A stretch of 64,000 bases of DNA from Micavibrio sp. UBA2137. Lineage in GTDB: Bacteria; Pseudomonadota; Alphaproteobacteria; Micavibrionales; Micavibrionaceae. Below the pieces are notes generated by a model. The model did not search any database. It saw nothing but the letters and a program-made list of their open reading frames with translations, and was not told the DNA's origin. Every line of letters starts with the position of its first letter. Position 1 is the first letter of the stretch. The stretch spans positions 32,311 to 96,310 of the forward strand of contig DCXL01000004.1 of the NCBI GenBank assembly GCA_002328415.1, given 5' to 3'. This document shows positions 8,662 to 47,727 of this stretch, one piece after another. Position numbers and translations under genes: made by a program.

Positions 8662-10491
8662 TTACATTCCTGCTGGTGTTGCGGGTGCGGCAGGGGCAAC
8701 TTGCTCTTCTTCCGCTGGTGAGGGCTCCTCAACAGGTGCGGCCTCTGCGGCGACATCTGCGGCAGCATCAGGTGCGTCGGCCACTTCATCTGCGGCGGCA
8801 ACTGTGAAGTCTCCACGGCTTGAGATCTCTTGACCTTCTGCATTACGTTCAACGCGAAGCTGGCCTTTTTCTGCCTCCGTAGAGTAAGCGCTCTCAGAGC
8901 GTTGCATCTGTGCATCAATTTGTGTCCAGATTTCGGTTGGAACACGAACAAGTTGTCCACCTAAGCTGATTTCAACGCTATTTTCAGGTGTAAGTTCGTA
9001 TCTGTCCCATGTGGGCATTTCACCAATGGGGCGTCCGCCACGCACATCTTCAGCAGCCTCGCGCAGTTGCTTTGTAAAATCTTGGTAGGCACGCGGATCA
9101 TCGGTATGTGACCAGTCTGAATGGCTATCCTGTTTGTCTGCAGCATCGTGCAAATCATCAACCGAGAAGCGAATGGTTTGTCCATCAGGCAACCCTGCTG
9201 TGGTCGTAAGGATGCTATCATGCGTTCCTTCTGTGAAACGTGTTGGGTTTTCCGCAAAAACTTGACGAAAATCTGCATCATCCCTGTATGGCATATCACC
9301 GCCATTACGTCTTTGTAATGTGTTATAGATGTCTTCGTTAGCTGACCTGTCAAACAAGATACTGCCATCAGAAACGGCTGGCATAATAAGTGCCACATTG
9401 TCATCAGAGATTTGATAGATATTAGACACGCCATTAACGCTGCGTGCAATCAGAACATATGAGTTTACTTCGTTTGAGTAGGCGAGTACATGCTCAGCTG
9501 ACTCAGGGTTGTTTTCCTGACGTGCAATAATGTCTGACATTTCTGTTAATACATCATTGCGAGAAATTTCAAAGCTGTCATTAATGCCAAATGGTGGAAG
9601 AGAGGCTTCGACAACAATCTCTGTGCCTTCGACTTCAGCAGCAGCTTCTGCGGCTGGCTCGCCCGCAACAGTGCGAATGCGAGCTTCTGTTTGCGAATTT
9701 TCCATTGTGATCGCGCCATCTATAAAACGGCCATCAATTGCCGTTAAATTACCACCTCTTGAAACGAAAACTTGCGCACTTTCTGTATTTAGGTCAGGTG
9801 CGCTTGGGTCGTCATCATTGGCTTGTACAGCAAGAAGTGCAACTTGGAGCGCGGCGACTTGACCTTCAGATTCAAGATGTGTCGTAATTGTTTCAAAATT
9901 GGCCTGATCATCACCTTCAACAAGTTCAAGCTCATTGGCCTCGGCATAACGCTGCATAGCTTGACGTGTGCTATCGCCAATTAAACCGTCAATTTCAAGA
10001 TTTGCCTCTGGATCAAGCAAGTTCAGGGAGGCCTGCATGCCAGACACGCCTGTTGTTTTGATTGTGTTGCGCACAGCGCGGTCAGTCATTTCACCGGCTT
10101 GGCCGTCCATCGCAACGGCTTGTGCCTCGGAGATGCGGTCGCCGAGATGTTCATTTGCCCAGCCTCCAACAGCATTAACTGCTCCTTGGCGGACAAGCGC
10201 GTTCTCTTCACCTGTTAATCCTCTAACAAAGGCCTGTGAGAAAGTACTGTTATCGTCCAAAAGCGTTTCAGCAGCCTCAAGGATTTGTGGAATTTCGGCT
10301 TCATCAAGTGTCTCACCGATATCAGGTAAGGATGCATATTGTTCACGGAGTGCGTTATAGGCGGCCATGCTAGCCTCACCAAAATTACCATCAATTCCAT
10401 TTGTGTCACCACCCATCACTGTAATCAGTGACTGGATCGACATCACAGCCTGTTCACCTGTTGGCATTAACTCAGTTGGTCTTGTACTCAT
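8662..10491 (-). CDS. Large hypothetical protein with two peptidoglycan-binding-like repeats and an Ala/Pro/Glu-rich C-terminus
   Basis: 609 aa. Motifs GIDGNFGEASMAAYNAL and EIDGLIGDSTRQAMQRYA resemble PG_binding_1 (DGxxGxxTxxA). No signal peptide. It ends 15 nt upstream of the SGNH hydrolase gene. Confidence 0.55.
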   Translation of the reverse strand: MSTRPTELMPTGEQAVMSIQSLITVMGGDTNGIDGNFGEASMAAYNALREQYASLPDIGETLDEAEIPQILEAAETLLDDNSTFSQAFVRGLTGEENALVRQGAVNAVGGWANEHLGDRISEAQAVAMDGQAGEMTDRAVRNTIKTTGVSGMQASLNLLDPEANLEIDGLIGDSTRQAMQRYAEANELELVEGDDQANFETITTHLESEGQVAALQVALLAVQANDDDPSAPDLNTESAQVFVSRGGNLTAIDGRFIDGAITMENSQTEARIRTVAGEPAAEAAAEVEGTEIVVEASLPPFGINDSFEISRNDVLTEMSDIIARQENNPESAEHVLAYSNEVNSYVLIARSVNGVSNIYQISDDNVALIMPAVSDGSILFDRSANEDIYNTLQRRNGGDMPYRDDADFRQVFAENPTRFTEGTHDSILTTTAGLPDGQTIRFSVDDLHDAADKQDSHSDWSHTDDPRAYQDFTKQLREAAEDVRGGRPIGEMPTWDRYELTPENSVEISLGGQLVRVPTEIWTQIDAQMQRSESAYSTEAEKGQLRVERNAEGQEISSRGDFTVAAADEVADAPDAAADVAAEAAPVEEPSPAEEEQVAPAAPATPAGM

Positions 10492-31145: not shown

Positions 31146-33251
31146 ATGCAGGATTTTGATCCAAAAGAACAGAAACGCAAGATAGAAGCGGATGCCAATC
31201 GCAAAGTGAATGATGCGCATGCTGATGATATTGTGCAGCCAGACGCACGCCTTGAGGACGATGCTGACGATATAGATTTTGATTTTGTTGATATGACCGT
31301 TGATGAAGAAGAGCTGAAACGTGAGATGGCGCAAAATCAACGCGCGCAAAATATGCATGATGCACAACACTCTTCAGCGCAGCGCTCTATAGAAGAGCGA
31401 AACGATGATGGCCCTTTGGAAATGGATATGGAGTATGTTGCTGATGATGCGGTGACACCCCCACAGGCCGATAATTCTTCGTCAGAGACACAGGTGCCTG
31501 TAACACAAACAACGCAGGTGCAAATGTCGCAAGGAACGGATGTTGCTACTTCAGGCGCTGATGGTGATCTAGTGGATGGCCAGAAAATGCGCCTTGGTGA
31601 ACGCCTCATCAAAATGGGGCTTATTACAAATGAGCAACTGAATGTTGCACTACAAGAGAAAAAGCTGAGCGGTAAAATGCTTGGCGAGGCTATTGTTGAG
31701 CTGGGCTTTATTGACGAAGAGCAGTTAACAATTGCATTGGCTGAATCAGCGGGTTTTGAAGTGTTTGATCCGAAATCAACCATCGTTGATGGGGAGGCGC
31801 TTCGTCTTTTGTCAAAACAAGATGCGCAACGCATGCGCGTGTTGCCACTTTTTATGCATGACCAAAGTGTTTATGTCGCTTTGATTGACCCGTACGATAT
31901 CGTGGCGATGGACGCCTTGCGCCGAAAGATGCCACGCGGTTTTTCCGTCAAACCTTTAATGACAACGCCCTCTGTCCTTAATGAGGCAATTGATGCGGCT
32001 TATGGTTACGCGAGTGCGATTGAGGATATTCTTAAAGAGCTTGAAACGCTTGATACAGAAGCAATTAACAAAATCGATGAACATGAAAACTACACGCACC
32101 CGATTGTGCGTCTTGTAAACGCGATGCTGTTTGAGGCGGTAAAATCAGGTGTGTCTGACTTGCACTTTGAGCCAGAAGAAAATTTCGTAAGGTTGCGTTA
32201 TCGTTTAGACGGTGTTCTCTTCACTGCGCAAATTATTCATAAGAAATATTGGAGCGGGATTTCACAGCGTATTAAAATTATGTCTGATTTAAATATCGCT
32301 GATAAATTAAGCCCGCAAGATGGTCGTTTTAACCTAAACATTGGCGGTCGAGATGCTGATTTTCGTGTCTCGTCCTTGCCAACGGTACATGGTGAAAACA
32401 TTGTCTTGCGTGTGCTTGATAAAAAGGCATCTATTTTGCCGCTTGATGCCCTTGGTTTTTCTGATGAAAATATGGCGTTAATTGAAAAGTCTCAAACGCG
32501 GCCCGAGGGGATTATTATTGTAACGGGACCAACGGGATCTGGTAAATCAACCTCGCTTTACTCCATGTTGAATAAAATCAATGATGTTGAGCGTAATATC
32601 CAGACGCTCGAAGACCCGGTTGAATATTCCCTTCCCATGATCAGGCAAACAAATGTACGCGAGGGCGTGTTGGATTTTGCAGATGGTATCCGTGCAATGT
32701 TGCGTCAGGACCCTGATATTATCTTTATTGGGGAGATTCGTGACGCGACAACAGCTGAAATGGCGCTGAAAGCGGCCATGACAGGGCATCAGGTTTACAC
32801 AACACTTCACACAAATGATTCCTTTGGGGCTATTCCACGTTTGCTGGATTTGGGATTGAAGCCAAATATGCTTGCAGGATCAATTATTTCCATTTTTGCG
32901 CAGCGTTTGGGTCGTCGTTTGTGTCAAGATTGTCGTGTCGCTTACACAGCTAGCCCAGAAGAGTGTGAATTGCTGAAGATTGATCCTAGTAATGCGCCTG
33001 AAATTTATAAGGCGAGCCCGGATGGGTGCACAAGCTGTTCTGGTATGGGGTATAAAGGGCGTACAGGTATTATCGAGATCCTCATGTTTGATGAAGGTAT
33101 GAATGATGCGCTTGCGCGCGGTGAGTCCAAGGCTGAGTTGAAGGCCTTGGCTAAGGAAAAAGGGTTCAAGAGCTTGGCAGATGATGCCATTCTGAAAATA
33201 TTGGATGGTGTAACAAGTATTGACGCTGTTACCAAGGTTGTTAGTCTATAG
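31146..33251 (+). CDS. pilB: Type IV pilus assembly (extension) ATPase, PilB/MshE family, with an N-terminal acidic extension
   Basis: 701 aa. T2SSE_N-like region, Walker A GPTGSGKST, Asp/His boxes, Walker B IIFIGEIRD, tetracysteine CQDC...CTSC. The first ~145 aa are acidic with no similarity I recognise. Confidence 0.9.
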   Translation: MQDFDPKEQKRKIEADANRKVNDAHADDIVQPDARLEDDADDIDFDFVDMTVDEEELKREMAQNQRAQNMHDAQHSSAQRSIEERNDDGPLEMDMEYVADDAVTPPQADNSSSETQVPVTQTTQVQMSQGTDVATSGADGDLVDGQKMRLGERLIKMGLITNEQLNVALQEKKLSGKMLGEAIVELGFIDEEQLTIALAESAGFEVFDPKSTIVDGEALRLLSKQDAQRMRVLPLFMHDQSVYVALIDPYDIVAMDALRRKMPRGFSVKPLMTTPSVLNEAIDAAYGYASAIEDILKELETLDTEAINKIDEHENYTHPIVRLVNAMLFEAVKSGVSDLHFEPEENFVRLRYRLDGVLFTAQIIHKKYWSGISQRIKIMSDLNIADKLSPQDGRFNLNIGGRDADFRVSSLPTVHGENIVLRVLDKKASILPLDALGFSDENMALIEKSQTRPEGIIIVTGPTGSGKSTSLYSMLNKINDVERNIQTLEDPVEYSLPMIRQTNVREGVLDFADGIRAMLRQDPDIIFIGEIRDATTAEMALKAAMTGHQVYTTLHTNDSFGAIPRLLDLGLKPNMLAGSIISIFAQRLGRRLCQDCRVAYTASPEECELLKIDPSNAPEIYKASPDGCTSCSGMGYKGRTGIIEILMFDEGMNDALARGESKAELKALAKEKGFKSLADDAILKILDGVTSIDAVTKVVSL

Positions 33252-36192: not shown

Positions 36193-36818
36193 TTAAGATT
36201 ATTGGACGCGAACGCATAATTTTCTTGTTGTCACTTCTTGGGCTTATCGCATTGATTTCGGGTGTGGCCTATTTTGTTATAGCACCCAAAATGGTTGCTG
36301 CAGAGCGAACGTTGGCAACAAAGAAAATTCAGGTCTCTGCAAAAAAGAACGATACTATGATGTTGCGAGATGAGTTCAGGACATTCCAAGAACGCGCTGA
36401 AAAATTCAAAGAGTTAGAGGTTTCAGGCCTTTTTGAAACGCAGAACAGACTTGAGGCCATCGATAAGGTGGAAGGATTTCGCGAAGAGATTGGCTTGTTA
36501 AAAGCGAGTATTAAAGTTGATGCGGGCGAAATTGTTGAAGATCAAAGAATGGACCGACTTGATAATGTTTATTTGGAAAGCCCTGTTTCTTTTACGCTTG
36601 AGGCGCTTGATGATATCGAGGTGTATACTTTCTTAAAGCTTGTGGAGGACCGCTTTCCTGGACGGTTGGTTGTTCAAAACCTCAAAATTGAGAAGGTTGC
36701 TGATATTACGACTGAAACATTGGCGAGTATTGTAAATGGTATTCCGACACCGATGGTTAAAGCAACAGCAGATTATAACTGGGTTACTCTGCCAGCAGAA
36801 AATGAATTGGAGCAATAA
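36189..36818 (+). CDS. PilO/MshJ-like bitopic pilus alignment protein
   Basis: 209 aa. N-terminal TM (IIFLLSLLGLIALISGVAYFVIA), coiled coil, small C-domain. ATGA overlap with the upstream gene. Confidence 0.4.
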   Translation: MIKIIGRERIIFLLSLLGLIALISGVAYFVIAPKMVAAERTLATKKIQVSAKKNDTMMLRDEFRTFQERAEKFKELEVSGLFETQNRLEAIDKVEGFREEIGLLKASIKVDAGEIVEDQRMDRLDNVYLESPVSFTLEALDDIEVYTFLKLVEDRFPGRLVVQNLKIEKVADITTETLASIVNGIPTPMVKATADYNWVTLPAENELEQ

Positions 36819-36819
36819 G

Positions 36820-37587
36820 ATGGCATACTCCAAAATCGTGATTTCAATTTCTGCATGTATTCTTTTTCTAGGAAGCACTTTCCATGCTTATGCTCAAAAT
36901 GCGCCTGATCCCGAAGGGGTTCCTATTGTGGATGTATTAGAGACTTTTGCCGATATTCAGGAGCCGCAGGGTGTTGAAAACGAAAATGCAAACACAGAAA
37001 CTGATTCAGTAACCGTGGAGGAAAACGCACAAGAAGGTAGTCTTGCTGTCGGTGTATCTGTTCCCGATTATAACGTTGATGAAATTGTACCCACCGAAAT
37101 GATTGTAATGCGCCTCGTTGAAGATGAAGTGCGGGAATATTACAAGGAAGATATTGTTGAAGCACCTGACTTTCCATCATTGATGTTTTTGCCAGAAAAC
37201 TATGCTCTATTGCGTGCTGCAATTTCACGTTTCCCACGAAAGAAAACGGCAGAAGAAATAGCTGATGAGGGCCCACAGTTGCCTGATGAGCAAACTGATG
37301 ACCCGACAGCCACTGGTGACGACGGTATTAATGTTGAAGTTATTGAGTACGAGCGCAATGTCTCTTTAGGTGGCATATTATTTTACAACGAGAGTAACTG
37401 GATTATCTGGTTGAACGAAAAGCGCGTTACGCCAAAGGCGTTGCCAGAGGAAATAACAGATATCAGTGTTGAAAAAGGCGCTGTCAAATTGAAGTGGTTA
37501 GATAAGAAAACAAACACAGTTTATCCGATAAGGCTTAAGCCAAATCAAACGTTTAATCTGGATGCGCGCGTCTTTTTGCCGGGGTAG
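36820..37587 (+). CDS. Exported PilP/MshK-like protein
   Basis: Signal peptide MAYSKIVISISACILFLGSTFHAYA from the ATG at 36820. Acidic linker, then a C-terminal beta-rich segment (VSLGGILFYNESNWIIWLNEKRV...ISVEKGAVKLKW). Confidence 0.35.
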   Translation: MAYSKIVISISACILFLGSTFHAYAQNAPDPEGVPIVDVLETFADIQEPQGVENENANTETDSVTVEENAQEGSLAVGVSVPDYNVDEIVPTEMIVMRLVEDEVREYYKEDIVEAPDFPSLMFLPENYALLRAAISRFPRKKTAEEIADEGPQLPDEQTDDPTATGDDGINVEVIEYERNVSLGGILFYNESNWIIWLNEKRVTPKALPEEITDISVEKGAVKLKWLDKKTNTVYPIRLKPNQTFNLDARVFLPG

Positions 37588-37592
37588 ATTCT

Positions 37593-38342
37593 ATGAGCGC
37601 AGTCAAAAAAACCCTTCCAGCAGAGCAAGTTAGTCCTCTCTCATTTGAAAATATAAGTGTTGGCTATGGGGCGTTTCGGGTTGCTTCTGATGTAAATATC
37701 ACCTTGAAATCAGGCCATATCCACGGACTTATCGGTTTAAACGGTGTTGGAAAAACGACGTTGATTAAAACGCTTCTGGGGCTACGCGATCCACAAGAGG
37801 GGCATATAAGCATTTTTGGCGAAACGTGCGGGACGTTAAAAGCAAAGAAAAAAATTTCCTATTTGCCAGAGCGTTTTGATCCGCCTTGGTTTTTGACGGG
37901 GCTAGAATTTGTTCGCTTTTCAGCAAAGCTTTATAACGCAACAATTTCGGATAAAGATATTTTTGAGATGGCCGAAAAGCTGTCTCTTGATACACATTTT
38001 TTAAGTCAAAAAGCGCAAAGCTATTCCAAGGGTATGCGGCAAAAGTTGGGGTTGATAGCAACTGTGTTGATGCCAGCTAAGCTTCTTATTTTGGATGAGC
38101 CCATGTCAGGTCTTGACCCGCTTGCACGTGTACAGGTGAAGGATGTGTTGGAGGCCTGCCGTGATGCAGGAAAGACAATATTTCTTTCAAGTCATATTTT
38201 GGCTGACCTTGATGAGATGTGTGAAGACATATCAATTCTGCATGGGGGCGCGATTGTTTATTCTGGTTCTCCAGAAGCACTTCGCAAGAAAACAAAAGAA
38301 AAGTCTCTGGAAAGAGCATTTCTGAAGTCGATTGCATCATAG
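37593..38342 (+). CDS. ABC transporter ATP-binding protein embedded in the pilus cluster
   Basis: 249 aa. Walker A GLNGVGKTT, signature YSKGMRQKLGL, Walker B LLILDEPMSGLD, H-loop SSH. Confidence 0.9.
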   Translation: MSAVKKTLPAEQVSPLSFENISVGYGAFRVASDVNITLKSGHIHGLIGLNGVGKTTLIKTLLGLRDPQEGHISIFGETCGTLKAKKKISYLPERFDPPWFLTGLEFVRFSAKLYNATISDKDIFEMAEKLSLDTHFLSQKAQSYSKGMRQKLGLIATVLMPAKLLILDEPMSGLDPLARVQVKDVLEACRDAGKTIFLSSHILADLDEMCEDISILHGGAIVYSGSPEALRKKTKEKSLERAFLKSIAS

Positions 38343-38367
38343 AAGATAAACAGGATAAGATAAAAAT

Positions 38368-39945
38368 ATGAGCGATAACCAAGATAATACGCAAAAACCA
38401 ATCATAGAGGGTGGGGTTCCCGAAAATGACTCGCCTGAGATGTCTTATGATAGTGATATGGAATTAAATGCCATTGATGCAAACGACATAGAGGACGTCT
38501 ATGAAGATACACAAGATTTCGATGGGCAAGATATTGGTGACTACGACAGGCCCCCACCGCAATATGGCTTTGATGAACATCGCAGTAATTCAAAACTCAT
38601 ACTGATTGTAGTTCTGGTGCTGGCAGTTCTCGGGTTTGGTGGCTTTTATTTCATGACAACGAGCTCTGATACAGAAATCATGGCGAGTATGCCAGTTCAA
38701 GGGCCAACACCTGATGCGCAAGCCTCTGTTGAGGAACAAGAGCAAGCCCCTCAAATTATCGAGGCGCAAGCTTTGCCAACAGATGATATGATTATCCCTG
38801 CGAGTGAAACGACAGAGGCCGATGAGGCGCTGGCTGTTGTAACTGAGGGGCAGGATATTGTTCTGGTAGAACAGGCAGATGTAAATGATGAAGGTGCATC
38901 AATTATTGACAGCATGCCAGATGAAGTTGGCCTTCCAGATATTGCGTCTGATGCACCTGAAAATGATGAAGTTCTTGAAGATGATATGACATTGGAAGCA
39001 CTTGTTGAAAGTTATGACGAGGCTGAAATTGATGCTGAAGCACCTGAAGTGGTTGCTAACACAGTCCTAGATGATAATGATGTTCCATCCGAGACAAGTC
39101 TTGCTGAGCCTGTTACTGAAACGGAAGATGAAACAACTGAAGCAGTTGTCGAAAGTGCAGAAACGCCAGTACAAGATGACCAGGTGGCTGAAACGATTGC
39201 CACTCGTGAGCCAGAAAACCTTGCGAGCGAGACGTATTTCGATGCGGACACGGATGTAACATATAACAGTGCCTCTGGCGTTGGTGATAAGGGTGACTAT
39301 GAGATTAAAGACCCCAAACGTGACTATTACGCACAATTCATCACGGTTAGTCAGCCAGCAAGTAATGTGATTACAACGGATAATCATTCTGATGATCTGG
39401 CGCGTGCGCAACGCGCTTTGGCGCTTAATAGGCCAGATGCAGCCATAGAGTTTTATGATCGTCTGTATGCGAAAAACAAACGTGACATGCGTATATTGAT
39501 GGGACGCGCCAATACGCTTCAAGTCTTGGGACGAAATGTTGAGGCGATTGAGGCCTACGAGGAAATTCTTGATCTTGACCCAAATAATACTGGAGCAGTT
39601 GTAAATCTGATGAGCCTTGTGCAGTCACAAAACCCACAAGGGGCGGTTCAAAGGTTGATGGCACTGCAGGAGCGCTATCCAACTAATGCAGGGGTGGCGG
39701 CGCAGCTGGGTCTAGCTTTTGCACAGATTAACCGTTACGATGATGCACTCAAATATTTAAGTAGGGCGCAATCGCTTTCTCCTGATAACGCATTGTTTTC
39801 GTTTAATAAAGCGGTCATCTATGACCGAATGGGTAACACGTCACAGGCCATTTTGATGTATGAGAAGGCTCTTGAACAAGATGCGGTCTATGGGGGTAAT
39901 ATTTCACGTGAGGCAATTTACGACAGGTTAGCAATCTTGCGCTAA
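38368..39945 (+). CDS. Bitopic membrane protein with a long acidic linker and C-terminal TPR repeats (MshN/FimV-like role possible)
   Basis: 525 aa. TM LILIVVLVLAVLGFGGFYF, ~200 aa D/E/T/V-rich low complexity, then several TPR-like repeats (AIEFYDRLY..., AIEAYEEILDLDPNN, ALKYLSRAQSLSPDN, AILMYEKALEQD). Confidence 0.7.
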   Translation: MSDNQDNTQKPIIEGGVPENDSPEMSYDSDMELNAIDANDIEDVYEDTQDFDGQDIGDYDRPPPQYGFDEHRSNSKLILIVVLVLAVLGFGGFYFMTTSSDTEIMASMPVQGPTPDAQASVEEQEQAPQIIEAQALPTDDMIIPASETTEADEALAVVTEGQDIVLVEQADVNDEGASIIDSMPDEVGLPDIASDAPENDEVLEDDMTLEALVESYDEAEIDAEAPEVVANTVLDDNDVPSETSLAEPVTETEDETTEAVVESAETPVQDDQVAETIATREPENLASETYFDADTDVTYNSASGVGDKGDYEIKDPKRDYYAQFITVSQPASNVITTDNHSDDLARAQRALALNRPDAAIEFYDRLYAKNKRDMRILMGRANTLQVLGRNVEAIEAYEEILDLDPNNTGAVVNLMSLVQSQNPQGAVQRLMALQERYPTNAGVAAQLGLAFAQINRYDDALKYLSRAQSLSPDNALFSFNKAVIYDRMGNTSQAILMYEKALEQDAVYGGNISREAIYDRLAILR

Positions 39946-39957
39946 AGAAAGTTTCCC

Positions 39958-40740
39958 ATGAGTACATATATGGGCGTTTCTCTCATATTTTTCTTTTACG
40001 GGCTATTAGGTCTATTTACTGGCGCTGTACTTGGCAGTTTTTCTGCGGCCTTTGTTTACAGGCAAGCGCATCAGATATCCATTTTTAAAGATAAAAATAA
40101 AAAATTTTCACGCTCGAAGTGTGCCTCTTGCAAACATGTTCTGGCATTAAAGGACCTTGTCCCAGTCTTGTCATGGATAAACTTGCGCGGAAAATGTCGC
40201 TATTGTCAGGCACGGATTTCCAGTCTTTATCCTATAATTGAAGCTGTAAGTATGTTTTATGCTGTTTTTATCCTCTTTGCTTGGGATATTAGCGTTTTAT
40301 CACTCATCTATTTGGTTGCATTGCCTCTTTGTTGGGTGCTTATCATCAATGGGGCTCGTAATGCGACATACTCATTGGGTGTTATTGCCTGTTTTGTAAT
40401 TTTAGCTTTGGTTTACGCAGTTTTGAAGCCACTCTTGATAACAACTGTGCTGTGGGCCTTTGGATTATCGCTTTGTGTAGCGTTATTGCTTAAGGTATTT
40501 ACGCGGCACTGGGCCTTGAAAGAAAGTGCCTTTTTTGCGGCATTGATTGTAATGACTGGCGCAACGCTTTTGCCGCTTGCACTTCTTGTCTTGGCGCTGT
40601 TTATGCTGGGAGTGCGTAAGGTCAGGCCAGATGTTTTGCTGGAAGGGTGTTTTATTTCAGCAACCGCCTCCAGTTTTATTTTCATAACTTTGGTGCAAGG
40701 CGCTATGAATATTTATGACTTATTATCAAGTATTTATTAA
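39958..40740 (+). CDS. Prepilin peptidase homolog (A24 family) lacking recognisable catalytic aspartates
   Basis: 260 aa. The N-terminal domain aligns with PilD (GAVLGSFSAAFVYR, CASCKHVL...DLVPVLSW...GKCRYCQARISSLYPIIE). The polytopic C-domain has no (I/L)D...LPD motif and no GxGD(F/V)KL motif. Confidence 0.65.
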   Translation: MSTYMGVSLIFFFYGLLGLFTGAVLGSFSAAFVYRQAHQISIFKDKNKKFSRSKCASCKHVLALKDLVPVLSWINLRGKCRYCQARISSLYPIIEAVSMFYAVFILFAWDISVLSLIYLVALPLCWVLIINGARNATYSLGVIACFVILALVYAVLKPLLITTVLWAFGLSLCVALLLKVFTRHWALKESAFFAALIVMTGATLLPLALLVLALFMLGVRKVRPDVLLEGCFISATASSFIFITLVQGAMNIYDLLSSIY

Positions 40741-43203: not shown

Positions 43204-45180
43204 ATGAAAGGTCTTGCGTCCGCAATGTTGTTTTCTAAAGCTTTCAAAAAATCTGTTCCTTTGGCAGTCGCTGTTGCGTTGTTGAGCACATCGGCCTTTT
43301 CACTAACTGGCTGTGACTTGACGCAAAACCATCTGAAAATTGATCGTGAAAAAAACATGGACAGACAGGATTACCGTGATGCGCTTGCGTCACGTGATCC
43401 GAATTTAGAAGAGTTTGTCGAATTTGATGACTCCATTCCTGCGCTTCAGCCTTACGTTGAAGAAGTCAGCATGAACGCGCGTCCGATCCCGCTTGTCTCT
43501 GTTTCTGTTAATCAGACAATCCCTCTACGTGATGTCTTATTTGAGTTGGCTGATCAGGCAGGCTATGACCTTGAACTGGATCCACGCATTTCGGGGTCAA
43601 TTATTTTCTCTGCGCGCAACAAACCTTTTGATGTTGTGATTGACAGGATCTCTGATATAGCAGGTTTACGCTATAAATTTGATGATGACAGCCTGCGCGT
43701 TGAATTGGATACACCGTACAGCAAAAGTTATAAAATTGATTATCTAACTGTTATTCGTACAACTGCGAGCACAATGTCGAATAATATTTCTGTTGTAACG
43801 GGTGAGGGCGCCGACACTGGATCTGCCTTTAATATTACAAGTAACTCCGAAGCGGACTTCTGGGGCGAGCTTGAAACAAACCTGACACAGATATTGGAAT
43901 CAAATGCGAGCCGTGGTTTCTTAAGAACTGGATCCGACCCAATTATTGAGGTTGTGGAGAGTAATGCTCCCGGTGGCCCCGCAACAGTTGATATTCCAGT
44001 CGAGCAGTTGACGGATGCACAGGTTAATGACGAGCCGTCTATCGTAGAAGAAGGTACAGAGCCACAGCTTGATGAAAACGGTGTCCCACTTCCAACACCG
44101 GGTCAGGATACATCGACACCACCTGTTGTTCAGCCGAGAAACACAATTTTACAGGTTACGTCATCGCCCGCTGCGACACCAACTGGTGCAGATGGTGAAG
44201 CAAATGAGGTTAATTTCACACCCTCTTTTTCAATTAACAGACAGGCTGGCCTCGTATCTGTTTACGCTAATGAACGCATCCACAAGGAAGTCGCTGATTA
44301 TCTTGGTGAATTGAAGAAATCGCTCACTTCGCAAGTCCTTATTGAGGCGAAAGTTCTCGAAGTGTCTTTAAGTGATGAATTTTCGACTGGTATTGATTGG
44401 GCAAAATTAGGGGATTTCATTAGTCCTGAACTGTCTCTTGCGTTTGGTACAACAGGAGCGGGTTCTCGCCCCGCGCTAACACCTGTTGCAGGCAGTGATT
44501 TTGTTGCTGGTTATGTCGGTAGCGACTTAGGCGCGGTTGTTCAGGCCATCTCGCGTTTTGGAACGGTCTCAGCCTTGGCTAGTCCACGTATGACGGTACT
44601 TAATAATCAGGCTGCAGCCTTGAATGTGGCTCAAAATTCAGTTTATTTCGAAATTGAAATTGATGTGACGACTGAAGAGGGCGTTACACAGACAGATATT
44701 GATAGTGATATTCGTAACGTACCAGAAGGTGTTTTGATTAACGTGCTTCCAACAATTAATCCTGATACGGGCTCGATTACCATGCAGGTGCGCCCGACGG
44801 TCACGCGCATTGTTAACCGTGTCGAGGATCCCGCAGTTGCCTTTGTAGCGGCGCAGGCTGATATTGAGGGTATTTCATCACAGGTGCCTGAATTGAATGT
44901 GCAGGAAATTGACTCTATCCTTTCTATGCAATCAGGCGAGGTTGCTGTTCTTGGTGGTCTTATCCAGGACCGCGTTGAAAGTCAGCAAGAAAGCATTCCT
45001 GTATTAGGTGAGGTTCCTGTTATCGGTGCTGCTTTCCGCAATCAAGCAGATAATATTCAAAAAACAGAATTGGTTATTTTCTTGAAGGCAACAATAGTGG
45101 ATGCGCCAAGTACAGTAAGTCAAACTGATAAAGAGCTGTACAGAACGTTTTCACAAGACAGACGCCCCTTGAAATTCTAA
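43204..45180 (+). CDS. Lipoprotein secretin (PilQ/MshL-like)
   Basis: 658 aa. Lipobox SLTG-C, N-domains, and a C-terminal secretin domain (LASPRMTVLNNQAAALNV...IPVLGEVPVIGAAFRNQ...ELVIFLKATIV). Confidence 0.85.
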   Translation: MKGLASAMLFSKAFKKSVPLAVAVALLSTSAFSLTGCDLTQNHLKIDREKNMDRQDYRDALASRDPNLEEFVEFDDSIPALQPYVEEVSMNARPIPLVSVSVNQTIPLRDVLFELADQAGYDLELDPRISGSIIFSARNKPFDVVIDRISDIAGLRYKFDDDSLRVELDTPYSKSYKIDYLTVIRTTASTMSNNISVVTGEGADTGSAFNITSNSEADFWGELETNLTQILESNASRGFLRTGSDPIIEVVESNAPGGPATVDIPVEQLTDAQVNDEPSIVEEGTEPQLDENGVPLPTPGQDTSTPPVVQPRNTILQVTSSPAATPTGADGEANEVNFTPSFSINRQAGLVSVYANERIHKEVADYLGELKKSLTSQVLIEAKVLEVSLSDEFSTGIDWAKLGDFISPELSLAFGTTGAGSRPALTPVAGSDFVAGYVGSDLGAVVQAISRFGTVSALASPRMTVLNNQAAALNVAQNSVYFEIEIDVTTEEGVTQTDIDSDIRNVPEGVLINVLPTINPDTGSITMQVRPTVTRIVNRVEDPAVAFVAAQADIEGISSQVPELNVQEIDSILSMQSGEVAVLGGLIQDRVESQQESIPVLGEVPVIGAAFRNQADNIQKTELVIFLKATIVDAPSTVSQTDKELYRTFSQDRRPLKF

Positions 45181-45941
45181 TGACACTTCTTGTCCGATAT
45201 GTCTTAACAGCTTGCATACGTGACAAGGTTTTTCTGTCTATGATTGTGGCTTCGGCCGTAGCTGTTTCATTATCTGTTTTTCTGGGATCGACAGCAATCG
45301 TGGAACAAGATCAATTTGTGATTGTTTTCGCCGCATCTAGCCTGCGCTTTCTTCTCATTATGGGAATTACACTGTTTATTGTGTTTTATACCCGTCGAAC
45401 GGTCGAACAGCGTGATTTGGATTATTTGATTACACGCCCTATTACGCGACGAGACTATATCGTGGCACATACCGCAAGCTTTGCAATAATTAGTCTGCTT
45501 TTGTCTTCTGTGATTTTTACTGTGATAGGCTTGATAGGAAAAGGCTATTTTAACGCGGGGTATATCCTATGGGGCATAAGCCTTTTCTTCGAAATGGTGA
45601 TTGTTGCGAGTGCGGCCTTCTTCTTTTCCATGGTTTTGCGCTCAGCTGTTTCGGCGGTTTTATCTACTTTTGCATTATACGCTTTGGCGCGTCTTATCGG
45701 GCAAATTATTGGGATAGCCGTTAGTCCTGACATTGCGGCACAATATCCATTTTTTGCAAATACCATGACAACAGTCTCTCTCTTCGTGCCACGTTTAGAT
45801 TTATTTGCACAATCGTCATGGCTTCTCTATGGAACGGACAAATTCGGATTTTTATCTATTCTTGTATTTGTGCAGGGTGTTATTTTTACAGCGCTCCTTA
45901 CAGTTATGACGCTTATCGATCTGCATAAAAAAGAATTTTAG
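45180..45941 (+). CDS. Polytopic membrane protein, ABC-2-type permease-like
   Basis: 253 aa with ~6 predicted TM helices. The start overlaps the secretin stop (TAATG). Probable partner of the ABC ATPase at 37593-38342. Confidence 0.5.
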   Translation: MTLLVRYVLTACIRDKVFLSMIVASAVAVSLSVFLGSTAIVEQDQFVIVFAASSLRFLLIMGITLFIVFYTRRTVEQRDLDYLITRPITRRDYIVAHTASFAIISLLLSSVIFTVIGLIGKGYFNAGYILWGISLFFEMVIVASAAFFFSMVLRSAVSAVLSTFALYALARLIGQIIGIAVSPDIAAQYPFFANTMTTVSLFVPRLDLFAQSSWLLYGTDKFGFLSILVFVQGVIFTALLTVMTLIDLHKKEF

Positions 45942-45950
45942 AGGAGAAAC

Positions 45951-46676
45951 ATGCAAATTAATGCACGCTCGCTTCGCAATTTATCTCTTGCTTTGGGGGT
46001 TTTTGTTACACTCCAGATTGTTTTCTCGCTTGGCATTCGTCCAGAACGTGCCCAATGGGGGAATGTACCAGATGCCCCGAACATAAATGCCTACCAATCA
46101 TCCTTTCTAGGAGACACCTCATTGGCACATCGTATGGTGGGCATGTTGCTCCAGAATTTTGGCGGTTCTGGAGGGCGTGTTGAGTCAATCCATGAGTATG
46201 ATATGCATAAAGTCGCGCAATGGCTTGCGCTTGGTTTTGAATTGGAAGAGCGCTCTAATTATCTTCCCTTTCTGGCGGCCTATTATTTTGGAGCAACAGA
46301 AACGAAATCCGAGCTAGAGCCCCTTATAGATTTTTTGGCAGAAGTTGGCCGTTATGATGATGACGATAATTGGCGGTGGCTTTCCAATGCTGTTTATTTA
46401 GCGCGCTTTCGTGCAGAAAATTTTGAAAAGGCTGTTGTTCTGGCAGACGAATTAGCGACTATGTACAGGCCAGGACGGCCAGCATTAATTGCGCAAATGC
46501 CAGCTTTTATACAATTGCAGATAGGGGATAAGGATGCTGCTTACGCTATTATGCTTGAGCTTATAAAAGAATCATCTGAGACAATGCATCCAAATGAAGT
46601 TAATTTTATGGTTGATTATATCTGCACACGCACACTTTCGCCCAAAAAAGCACTTGAAAATCCACTTTGCCAATGA
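45951..46676 (+). CDS. Membrane-anchored helical-repeat protein, unknown function
   Basis: 241 aa. GAGGAG RBS, N-terminal TM (LSLALGVFVTLQIVFSLGI), TPR-like helical remainder. Starts 9 nt after the permease gene. Confidence 0.4.
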   Translation: MQINARSLRNLSLALGVFVTLQIVFSLGIRPERAQWGNVPDAPNINAYQSSFLGDTSLAHRMVGMLLQNFGGSGGRVESIHEYDMHKVAQWLALGFELEERSNYLPFLAAYYFGATETKSELEPLIDFLAEVGRYDDDDNWRWLSNAVYLARFRAENFEKAVVLADELATMYRPGRPALIAQMPAFIQLQIGDKDAAYAIMLELIKESSETMHPNEVNFMVDYICTRTLSPKKALENPLCQ

Positions 46677-46901
46677 TCGTGATGTAATTAGAACAAATAT
46701 GTCAAAAATGTGGCAAGCTATTGTAGCTAAAGGCCTGTAAATAAATTTATTTTTTCTAATATAGTCCGTTTTTTTATGTTTTATTAAGACATGCCATGTG
46801 AAAATAAAAAGATAAGGGATAATCCCTTGTATGGCATAGAAAATGAAATATACTGTATGTGTCAAAACATTATGCAATTGTGCAACTTCAAGGGGAATAA
46901 A

Positions 46902-47675
46902 ATGACGGAATTTATAAATATTGATCGCAATAAGGACGATGGTTTTACACTGGTTGAACTCGCGATTGTTATGATCATTATCGGTCTTTTGATCGGTGGT
47001 GTTCTTAAGGGACAAGAATTAATTGCCAATGCGGAGGTGACTGCATCCGTGTCTCAGGTAAAGGCGACGGAATCTGCGATGTCAACTTTCCAAGATGCTT
47101 ACGCGAATTTGCCAGGCGATATGACTAACCCTGCCGCGCGTATTCCAAACTGTACAGGCGAATGTGCGCGTGTTGGTAATGCAAACGGCTTGATTGAGCC
47201 ACTTCCAGGGGCTGCACAAACTCTTGCTATGGAGGCGCAAACATTCTGGTCACAGCTTGCTGCTGCTGACATTTTGGGTGGTGTGATAGCAGATTCTCCT
47301 GCGGTTGTTCCTACACCGGGTCAAACACACCCTGAATTTCCATCAGGTGGAGCTCTACGTGTTGGATATCACGTTGGAGGTGTCATTACTGGACAAACAG
47401 CTGCTGCAGGGCAAAGTGCAGGCCACTATGTGAATTCAACTTTAGCATTAGCCAATATTGCCACGAACACACAAGCAGACTCAGCTCTTTCGCCGGGTCA
47501 GGCTTCACGCATTGACTCAAAAATTGACGATGGTCAGCCCAACACAGGAAGTGTTCTTGGTAATGGACAGGCTGCTGCTGGTACAACATCTTGTGCACTT
47601 GGTACAGGTGTGACAGATGTTTATAATACAGCGCAGACAAGTCTTAACTGTAATACGTACATTCGTATAAGATAA
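46902..47675 (+). CDS. pilA: Type IV pilin (major pilin candidate)
   Basis: Class III signal MTEFINIDRNKDDG|FTLVELAIVMIIIGLLIGG with Gly-1, Phe+1, Glu+5. AAGGGGA RBS at the ATG at 46902. 243-aa mature protein with Cys pairs CTGEC and C...C near the C-terminus. Confidence 0.85.
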   Translation: MTEFINIDRNKDDGFTLVELAIVMIIIGLLIGGVLKGQELIANAEVTASVSQVKATESAMSTFQDAYANLPGDMTNPAARIPNCTGECARVGNANGLIEPLPGAAQTLAMEAQTFWSQLAAADILGGVIADSPAVVPTPGQTHPEFPSGGALRVGYHVGGVITGQTAAAGQSAGHYVNSTLALANIATNTQADSALSPGQASRIDSKIDDGQPNTGSVLGNGQAAAGTTSCALGTGVTDVYNTAQTSLNCNTYIRIR

Positions 47676-47696: not shown

Positions 47697-47727
47697 AAAG
47701 AGAGGCTCATTTCAGCCTCTTTTTTTT
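47697..47727 (+). terminator. Rho-independent terminator after the pilin gene
   Basis: agaggct-catttc-agcctct hairpin followed by TTTTTTT. Confidence 0.7.

Follow-up and report, generated by a model that had tools for sequence, protein, structure and literature searches.

The stretch of DNA considered here (64,000 nucleotides, referred to below as the window; contig DCXL01000004.1, positions 32,311 to 96,310 of the forward strand) comes from Micavibrio sp. UBA2137, an alphaproteobacterium with a genome of 1.77 Mb and 44.8% G+C. It contains a gene cluster for a type IV pilus machine of the mannose-sensitive haemagglutinin (MSH)-like kind. Within this cluster lie the genes for a 253-amino acid (aa) permease, a 241-aa helper protein and an ATP-binding cassette (ABC) ATPase, which probably make up a single transporter module belonging to the pilus machine.

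Genes of the locus and their products

Table 1. Features of the locus, with positions in the window.
Feature	Position	Strand	Basis
PilP-like gene, directly 5' of the ATPase gene	36736..37587	+	Synteny (O-P-ATP)
ABC ATPase, 249 aa, with a presumed PilH-like role in powering the module	37593..38342	+	PF00005, E 4.7e-24
MshL-like secretin, 658 aa, lipoprotein-type signal (LTGC)	43204..45180	+	PF00263, 1.7e-32; TIGR02519 pilus_MshL, 3.6e-65
TAATG stop/start overlap of secretin and permease	45178..45182	+	Sequence; absent in relatives
ABC-2 (type V fold) permease, 253 aa, six predicted transmembrane helices	45180..45941	+	Profiles, AlphaFold2, Foldseek
GAGGAG Shine-Dalgarno motif of the 241-aa reading frame	45941..45946	+	Sequence; includes the last base of the permease stop
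Bitopic helper, 241 aa: predicted N-terminal transmembrane helix and periplasmic all-alpha tetratricopeptide repeat (TPR)-like solenoid	45951..46676	+	AlphaFold2, synteny
Type IV pilin gene, N_methyl motif	46791..47675	+	PF07963, 4.5e-7
Strong terminator-like hairpin after the pilin gene, end of the cluster	47697..47724	+	11-bp stem followed by a T run

The first-pass annotation of this DNA had described an overlap of the secretin and permease genes, a 241-aa open reading frame (ORF) starting 9 nucleotides (nt) past the permease behind a GAGGAG motif, and an ATPase gene 7 kb upstream of the permease, with TPR, peptidase-like, PilT, PilU and secretin genes in between. The ORF listing, the raw sequence and the family matches bear out this layout. 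The secretin stop codon (TAA, 45178-45180) and the permease ATG share one base, and the permease itself stops with TAG at 45939-45941. The ATPase and permease genes are separated by those of a TPR protein, a PilD-like protein, two ATPases of the PilT/PilU family (TIGR01420 at 1.5e-139 and 3.5e-125) and the secretin, the translation of which shows a lipobox. The ATPase gene starts 5 nt after the end of the PilP-like gene. The permease start agrees with the conserved N-terminus across 43 homologues (alignment A1). There is no Shine-Dalgarno-like motif 5' of the permease ATG in the window sequence, so its translation in this genome plausibly depends on ribosomes that terminate on the secretin. 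The pilin ORF likely has its true start at an internal ATG near 46902, and the hairpin behind it is the sole strong terminator-like element of the area.

Taken alone, the permease matches PF12679 with an E-value of 3.9e-4 and 20 bits, under the gathering cut-off of 27.2. Among the 43 homologues, PF12679 is matched by 10 (best E 9.4e-6), PF12730 by six, PF12698 by four and the NCBIfam model of PmtD by 12, and the family profile finds PmtD in the PDB at E 1.6e-6. The AlphaFold2 (AF2) model (predicted local distance difference test score, pLDDT, 91.5; predicted TM-score, pTM, 0.88) has helices at residues 2-13, 16-37, 43-76, 80-85, 90-119, 126-152, 156-180, 183-188/190-202/213-217 and 222-250. 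Six of them are long; an amphipathic helix precedes these at the N-terminus, a short one follows the second transmembrane helix (TM2), and the TM5-TM6 loop holds small helices, features that match the ABC-2/type V pattern including the cytoplasmic coupling helix after TM2 (residues ~80-85). In a Foldseek comparison of the model, PmtD and NosY come first (TM-scores 0.58-0.68, the highest being those of NosY, 0.64-0.68), followed by ABCG transmembrane domains; all the top matches are ABC-2 transmembrane domains. Lys/Arg counts indicate cytoplasmic N- and C-termini. Conservation within the family is highest in the motif P204-R205-x-D207-L208-x-x-Q211-x-x-W214-L215-x-Y217, which falls into the periplasmic TM5-TM6 loop, and the charged residues R56, E138 and R171 are invariant within transmembrane helices in alignment A1. 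Profiles and predicted fold identify the 253-aa protein as an ABC-2 (type V) permease; it occurs as a single copy in the host genome. A Wzm/KpsM-type polysaccharide exporter was considered and rejected: none of the 43 family members matches PF01061, and the cluster holds no linked or conserved glycosyltransferase gene.

No Pfam, NCBIfam or PDB sequence match was found for the helper, and one of the 45 members of its family matches TPR_12 at E 0.018. The AF2 model (pLDDT 92.5) shows a transmembrane helix at residues 5-29 followed by 11 helices, for which Foldseek returns generic TPR folds only (TM-scores of at most 0.46). R6 and R9 precede the transmembrane helix, in line with the positive-inside rule, and a Cys225/Cys240 pair is nearly invariant across the Micavibrio lineage; both features argue for a periplasmic location of the solenoid. 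The helper is thus predicted to be an N-terminally anchored periplasmic TPR-like solenoid without a named family. Like the permease, it is encoded once in the host genome. A lipoprotein pilotin of the PilF/PilW/Tgl type was rejected as an identity for this protein, given its N-terminal transmembrane anchor, the absence of a lipobox and the absence of a canonical TPR match in Pfam.

The ATPase is, by its translated sequence, predicted to be a standard ABC-2-class subunit with all catalytic motifs present: Walker A GLNGVGKT, signature YSKGM, Walker B LLILDEP and H-loop SSHIL. Its best NCBIfam matches belong to the ABC-2 class (RbbA 2e-42, DrrA 1.9e-41, GldA 7.7e-36, PmtA 8.4e-33), and the PmtC model is matched as well. 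The initial proposals that the 253-aa protein is ABC-2-related with six transmembrane helices, and that the 241-aa protein is a membrane-anchored helical-repeat protein, therefore agree with the family matches, the PmtD profile match and the AF2 models.

Conservation of the three genes and of their junctions

Among 41 relatives, the permease is present in 29, the helper in 28 and an ATPase orthologue (E ≤ 1e-60) in 30. They occur in the same genomes except for losses at contig ends or assembly gaps, and 10 of the relatives have none of the three and likewise miss the MSH-like secretin. The trio comes and goes with the pilus cluster as a whole. A scan of a genome collection with the helper alignment gave 168 loci, of which the best 80, Micavibrio-like and including that of the cultured M. 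aeruginosavorus HCB189, were analysed. Essentially all of these loci with enough flank show the order O-P-ATP-TPR-D-T-U-Q-PERM-X-A, in which Q is the secretin, PERM the permease and X the helper; the order permease-helper-(AraC)-pilin is conserved. In a few lineages the cluster is broken (L050, L051; G014, G026, G038, G177): the secretin-permease-helper block is intact there, and the ATPase lies with the alignment genes 11-121 kb off or on the other side.

In 70 of the 80 loci the helper gene is directly followed by a gene for a polytopic membrane protein of ~345-358 aa that carries an AraC-type helix-turn-helix (PF12833, ~1e-20) at its C-terminus. This gene abuts or overlaps the helper gene and lies ahead of the pilin (e.g., L033:10697-11731; L104:10696-11772). 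The host genome of the window shows no trace of the protein (best E of a whole-genome tblastn search 1.4), and the helper gene and the pilin ORF are spaced there by only 114 nt (46677-46790).

The junctions were measured over the same 80 loci. Between secretin and permease the median gap is 21 nt, with a range of 1-191 nt and 11 gaps of more than 50 nt, and 0 of 77 junctions overlap; loci of the same genus have gaps of 38, 38 and 6 nt. Some of the spacers above 50 nt hold hairpins or a terminator-like element (e.g., L086, L104). The permease-helper junction has a median gap of 4 nt and a maximum of 25 nt, with 24 overlaps in 79 cases. Similarly, the PilP-like gene and the ATPase gene are separated by a median of 7 nt, overlap in 14 of 63 loci and are never more than 50 nt apart. 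The gap between PilU and the secretin is always above 50 nt (median 123 nt; 0 overlaps in 68).

The first-pass annotation had read the TAATG overlap as a sign that the permease is translationally coupled to the secretin and made in stoichiometric proportion to it, and had suggested checking whether the overlap is kept in related genomes. It is not. Since none of the 77 related loci overlaps, the overlap cannot be taken as a conserved feature: it is a private local compaction of this genome, outside the mechanism, and coupling to the secretin is a local peculiarity and not a principle. The coupling that exists at the level of design is that of the permease with the helper and of the PilP-like gene with the ATPase. 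Co-production with the secretin is likewise not supported, given that the conserved coupling joins permease and helper and that no secretin adjoins the permease at the loci inspected outside the Alphaproteobacteria (see below).

A palindrome resembling repetitive extragenic palindromic (REP) elements, of the TCCCGGC-N5-GCCGGGA type, recurs in the secretin-permease spacer of L055, L069, L074, L095 and L104. In M. aeruginosavorus-type genomes its insertion stretches the spacer to 79-191 nt (~9050-9150 in locus coordinates).

The family extends well beyond Micavibrio-like bacteria. Of 401 evenly sampled alphaproteobacterial genomes, 17 from ~13 families contain a member of the permease family. 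The 15 matches outside the order of the window all have the helper directly downstream, and 12 of them have the secretin directly upstream, the other three being fragmented assemblies. Each of the 15 genomes contains one ATPase orthologue, never adjacent to the permease, at a distance of 6-113 kb or on another contig. An exhaustive profile search gave, with clustering at 50% identity, 389 clusters for E ≤ 1e-30 and 908 for E ≤ 1e-10. In a phylum-level sample, ~36 non-alphaproteobacterial genomes match at E 1e-16 to 8e-45, along with about a dozen weaker partial matches. At 12 loci inspected from Pseudomonadota other than Alphaproteobacteria, permease and helper are both detected in seven and adjacent in all seven, an ATPase orthologue is found in five, and most loci have pilin, PilB or PilC genes no more than 10 kb away; the secretin is adjacent to the permease in none of the 12. 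The expected adjacency of permease and secretin in relatives thus holds for the Micavibrio-like loci and for 12 of the 15 class-level genomes, but not outside the Alphaproteobacteria. The helper stands directly 3' of the permease in every genome examined with flanking sequence, and of all neighbours of the pair the pilin gene is conserved most widely. The ATPase gene is always placed elsewhere; in Alphaproteobacteria it comes straight after the PilP-like gene.

One of the non-alphaproteobacterial loci (L131:11023-18681) encodes, in this order, permease, helper, an 889-aa TPR protein, a GrpE-like protein, an Hsp70/DnaK-like protein, pilin and ABC ATPase; the GrpE-like and Hsp70/DnaK-like proteins resemble a chaperone pair dedicated to this pilus-ABC cluster.

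A profile search also reached metagenome-assembled genomes labelled 'Rhodospirillaceae bacterium', at ~30-35% identity. The genes there run TPR - AAA_22 (MshM-like) - PilD - secretin - PERM - helper - pilin(s) - x - MshE/PilB - PilC - MN - O - P - ABC ATPase. Relative to the window, this order is circularly permuted, with Q-PERM-X-pilin and P-ATPase kept; the order O-P-ATPase is present in L113 and L115 too. The helper of such a cluster is homologous to that of the window (hhalign probability 99.9, E 2e-31); between the window ATPase and its orthologue in the distant 'Rhodospirillaceae' cluster the identity is 45%. The earlier attribution of the module to the pilus machinery is supported as far as membership in the cluster goes, because the synteny spans at least 13 alphaproteobacterial families and recurs in other classes.

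The 'Rhodospirillaceae' clusters differ from that of the window in several other genes. A MshM-like AAA_22 gene lies between TPR and PilD (L113:5989-7005, L114:6025-7029, L115:5901-6953) and is absent from the window cluster (38342-39958). The idea that the ABC ATPase replaces MshM was discarded, as the 'Rhodospirillaceae' clusters hold both the MshM-like gene and the ABC ATPase. PilT and PilU are inside the cluster in the window, whereas the 'Rhodospirillaceae' clusters have a PilT-like gene at their edge on the opposite strand. The PilD-like protein of the window (39958-40740) contains only an A24_N_bact domain (PF06750, 2.1e-23) with no match to Peptidase_A24 (PF01478), and the PilD genes of L113-L115 have both PF06750 and PF01478; the peptidase function of the window protein may be lost or highly diverged. 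The PilB-type assembly ATPase of the window (31146-33251) carries an MshE-type cyclic di-GMP (c-di-GMP)-binding N-terminal motif (NF053729, 3e-17), preceded by a ~145-residue acidic N-terminal extension.

Assembly of the module and its possible target

The pairing of the permease with the distant ATPase, presumed from the outset, is supported by the distribution of the two genes. An ATPase orthologue is found once per genome wherever the permease occurs, among the relatives and in the class sample. In the host genome, the ATPase has no adjacent gene for a transmembrane domain, no other orphan ATPase is on hand for the permease, and the nearest ATPase paralogues (E ≥ 5e-24) adjoin genes of membrane proteins. 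Because both are orphans that co-occur, and because the paralogues have membrane neighbours of their own, the ATPase at 37593-38342 appears to be the best candidate for the permease partner. It is hardly credible, by comparison, that this ATPase serves the alignment complex alone and that permease and helper act without ATP hydrolysis or with another ATPase. The fact that the ATPase and permease genes are never neighbours in any genome examined speaks for such a separation, but it would leave an ABC-2-class ATPase without a neighbouring transmembrane-domain gene beside a permease without another orphan ATPase, one orthologue of each in the same genomes.

With the partners so assigned, permease, helper and ATPase are likely to be the three parts of a single ABC-2 (type V) module. 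This module would be integral to the MSH-like type IV pilus machine as an accessory and, by gene content and context, a counterpart of the PilG-PilH-PilI system of Myxococcus. Several points weigh against this. The Foldseek E-values of the permease model are 1e-3 to 1e-2, and the Pfam match of the window permease lies below the gathering cut-off. The cluster is gained and lost as a unit, and co-occurrence cannot split a part of the machine from a passenger of the operon. The likeness to PilGHI is one of gene content and context, and the target may be pilin, the secretin or a small molecule.

In the mechanism that we propose, two permeases and two ATPases would form the transporter core, and the transmembrane helix of the helper would dock on the permease. 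ATP hydrolysis would be transmitted through the invariant periplasmic TM5-TM6 loop (P204-R205-x-D207...W214) into a movement of the helper solenoid. The favoured target is the pilin pool of the inner membrane, where the module may extract or hand over the hydrophobic N-terminal helix of the pilin. This choice of target is tentative, a fair way short of probable. It is preferred because no neighbour of the pair is conserved more widely than the pilin gene, because PmtCD, the closest characterised relative, exports amphipathic helical peptides, and because a defect in pilin export is reported for pilGHI mutants of Myxococcus (PMC3724824, PMC3924187).

The module might act on the secretin instead. 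Here the ABC-driven helper would aid the release, piloting, multimerisation or gating of the lipoprotein-type MshL-like secretin, as an ATP-powered, inner-membrane-anchored analogue of the TPR pilotins PilF, PilW and Tgl. The pair stands directly 3' of the secretin in all 80 of the Micavibrio-like loci analysed (the best 80 of 168), as in the 12 class-level genomes mentioned above, and this adjacency survives even where the ATPase has moved 11-121 kb away. Moreover, the secretin has a lipobox, the helper is TPR-like, and the structural match NosY provides a precedent for driving a partner: NosY acts by moving a periplasmic partner, not by transport. However, other classes of Pseudomonadota place the pair beside pilin, PilB or PilC with no adjacent secretin, the secretin-permease spacers reach 191 nt and contain hairpins, and the pilGHI genes of Myxococcus come after pilA, not pilQ (PMC3546991). 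We consider action on the secretin unlikely.

A third possibility, which seems quite improbable to us, is that the module is an ABC-2 exporter of the usual sort, co-regulated with the pilus without being a mechanical part of it. Its cargo would be small and either hydrophobic or amphipathic, for instance a lipid, glycolipid or peptide for the pilus or for predation. The nearest characterised relatives, PmtCD and the DrrA-type ATPases, are true exporters, and the invariant charged residues in the transmembrane helices would suit such a function. Yet the cluster includes no conserved biosynthetic or cargo gene such as one for a glycosyltransferase or a peptide precursor, the Wzm/KpsM-type signal is missing, and the split layout, with each half tied to a different pilus gene and conserved across orders, would be unusual for a passenger.

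Returning to the three-part pilus accessory, a broader proposal can be made, which is speculative and rather doubtful. A large class of MSH-like pili in Alphaproteobacteria and other Pseudomonadota could require the ABC-2 core with its anchored periplasmic solenoid as a second device driven by ATP, a mechanotransducer that extracts or delivers pilin N-terminal helices or operates the secretin. The device would moreover be linked, in most Micavibrio-like genomes, to the polytopic membrane AraC regulator, which would report its state to pilin transcription.

In general, the data make the three-part module a fixed component of the pilus cluster throughout an order, that of the predatory Micavibrio-like bacteria, and in numerous Pseudomonadota besides. 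The conserved rules of gene order (permease and helper together, the ATPase apart, the pilin gene nearby) point to specific partners. They also provide independent systems, including the cultured M. aeruginosavorus, for asking what an ABC engine adds to pilus assembly.

Comparison with known systems

We know of no type IV pilus model that includes an ABC transporter, and no description of the present module was found in the Micavibrio genome paper or in the literature searched on type IV filaments and MSH-type clusters. The MSHA locus of V. cholerae (mshI-mshQ) resembles the window cluster in its MshL-like lipoprotein secretin, its PilB with an MshEN c-di-GMP-binding domain, its fused PilM/N-like gene and its MshN-like TPR protein. 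Unlike the Vibrio locus, the window cluster carries PilT and PilU and is without a MshM-like gene. To our knowledge, the Vibrio MSHA locus contains no ABC transporter genes.

PmtCD, the exporter of phenol-soluble modulins in Staphylococcus (PDB 6xjh, 9q1y), is the best match of the permease in both sequence profile and fold. It is a type V ABC transporter for amphipathic helical peptides, and the window ATPase matches the PmtA and PmtC models. In contrast to the module, it has no bitopic periplasmic helper and no link to a pilus, it comes from a Gram-positive host, and the identity is only ~16%. NosDFY, involved in the maturation of nitrous oxide reductase (PDB 7o0y, 7o17, 7qba), combines an ABC-2 core with a dedicated periplasmic partner as the module is proposed to do. 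However, NosD is a beta-helix and not a TPR-like solenoid, the nos genes are contiguous, and the maturation of a copper centre is an unrelated function.

The PilG-PilH-PilI system of M. xanthus comprises an accessory factor, an ABC ATPase and a ~250-aa ABC-2-type permease. It is required for piliation and S-motility, by a mechanism that is still unknown (PMC3724824, PMC3546991, PMC3924187, PMC5544727). The Myxococcus genes follow the order pilA-pilG-pilH-pilI (PMC3546991). Both PilGHI (MXAN_5782-5780; TC 3.A.1.144.5) and the module described here are three-part systems that adjoin the pilin gene within a type IV pilus cluster, and in gene content and pilin-side context the module can be regarded as analogous to PilGHI. 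The first-pass suggestion that the 241-aa protein may be the counterpart of PilG is plausible as to role, since each would serve a pilus ABC system as its accessory factor. The pilGHI genes are contiguous and belong to a type IVa (T4a) cluster, whereas the window module is split, with the ATPase after the PilP-like gene and permease and helper after the secretin. The module thus differs from PilGHI in its split gene layout, its MSH-like cluster and its alphaproteobacterial host. If true, the proposal of a second ATP-driven device would explain the 25-year-old puzzle of PilGHI and add a functional subunit to the pilus machine.

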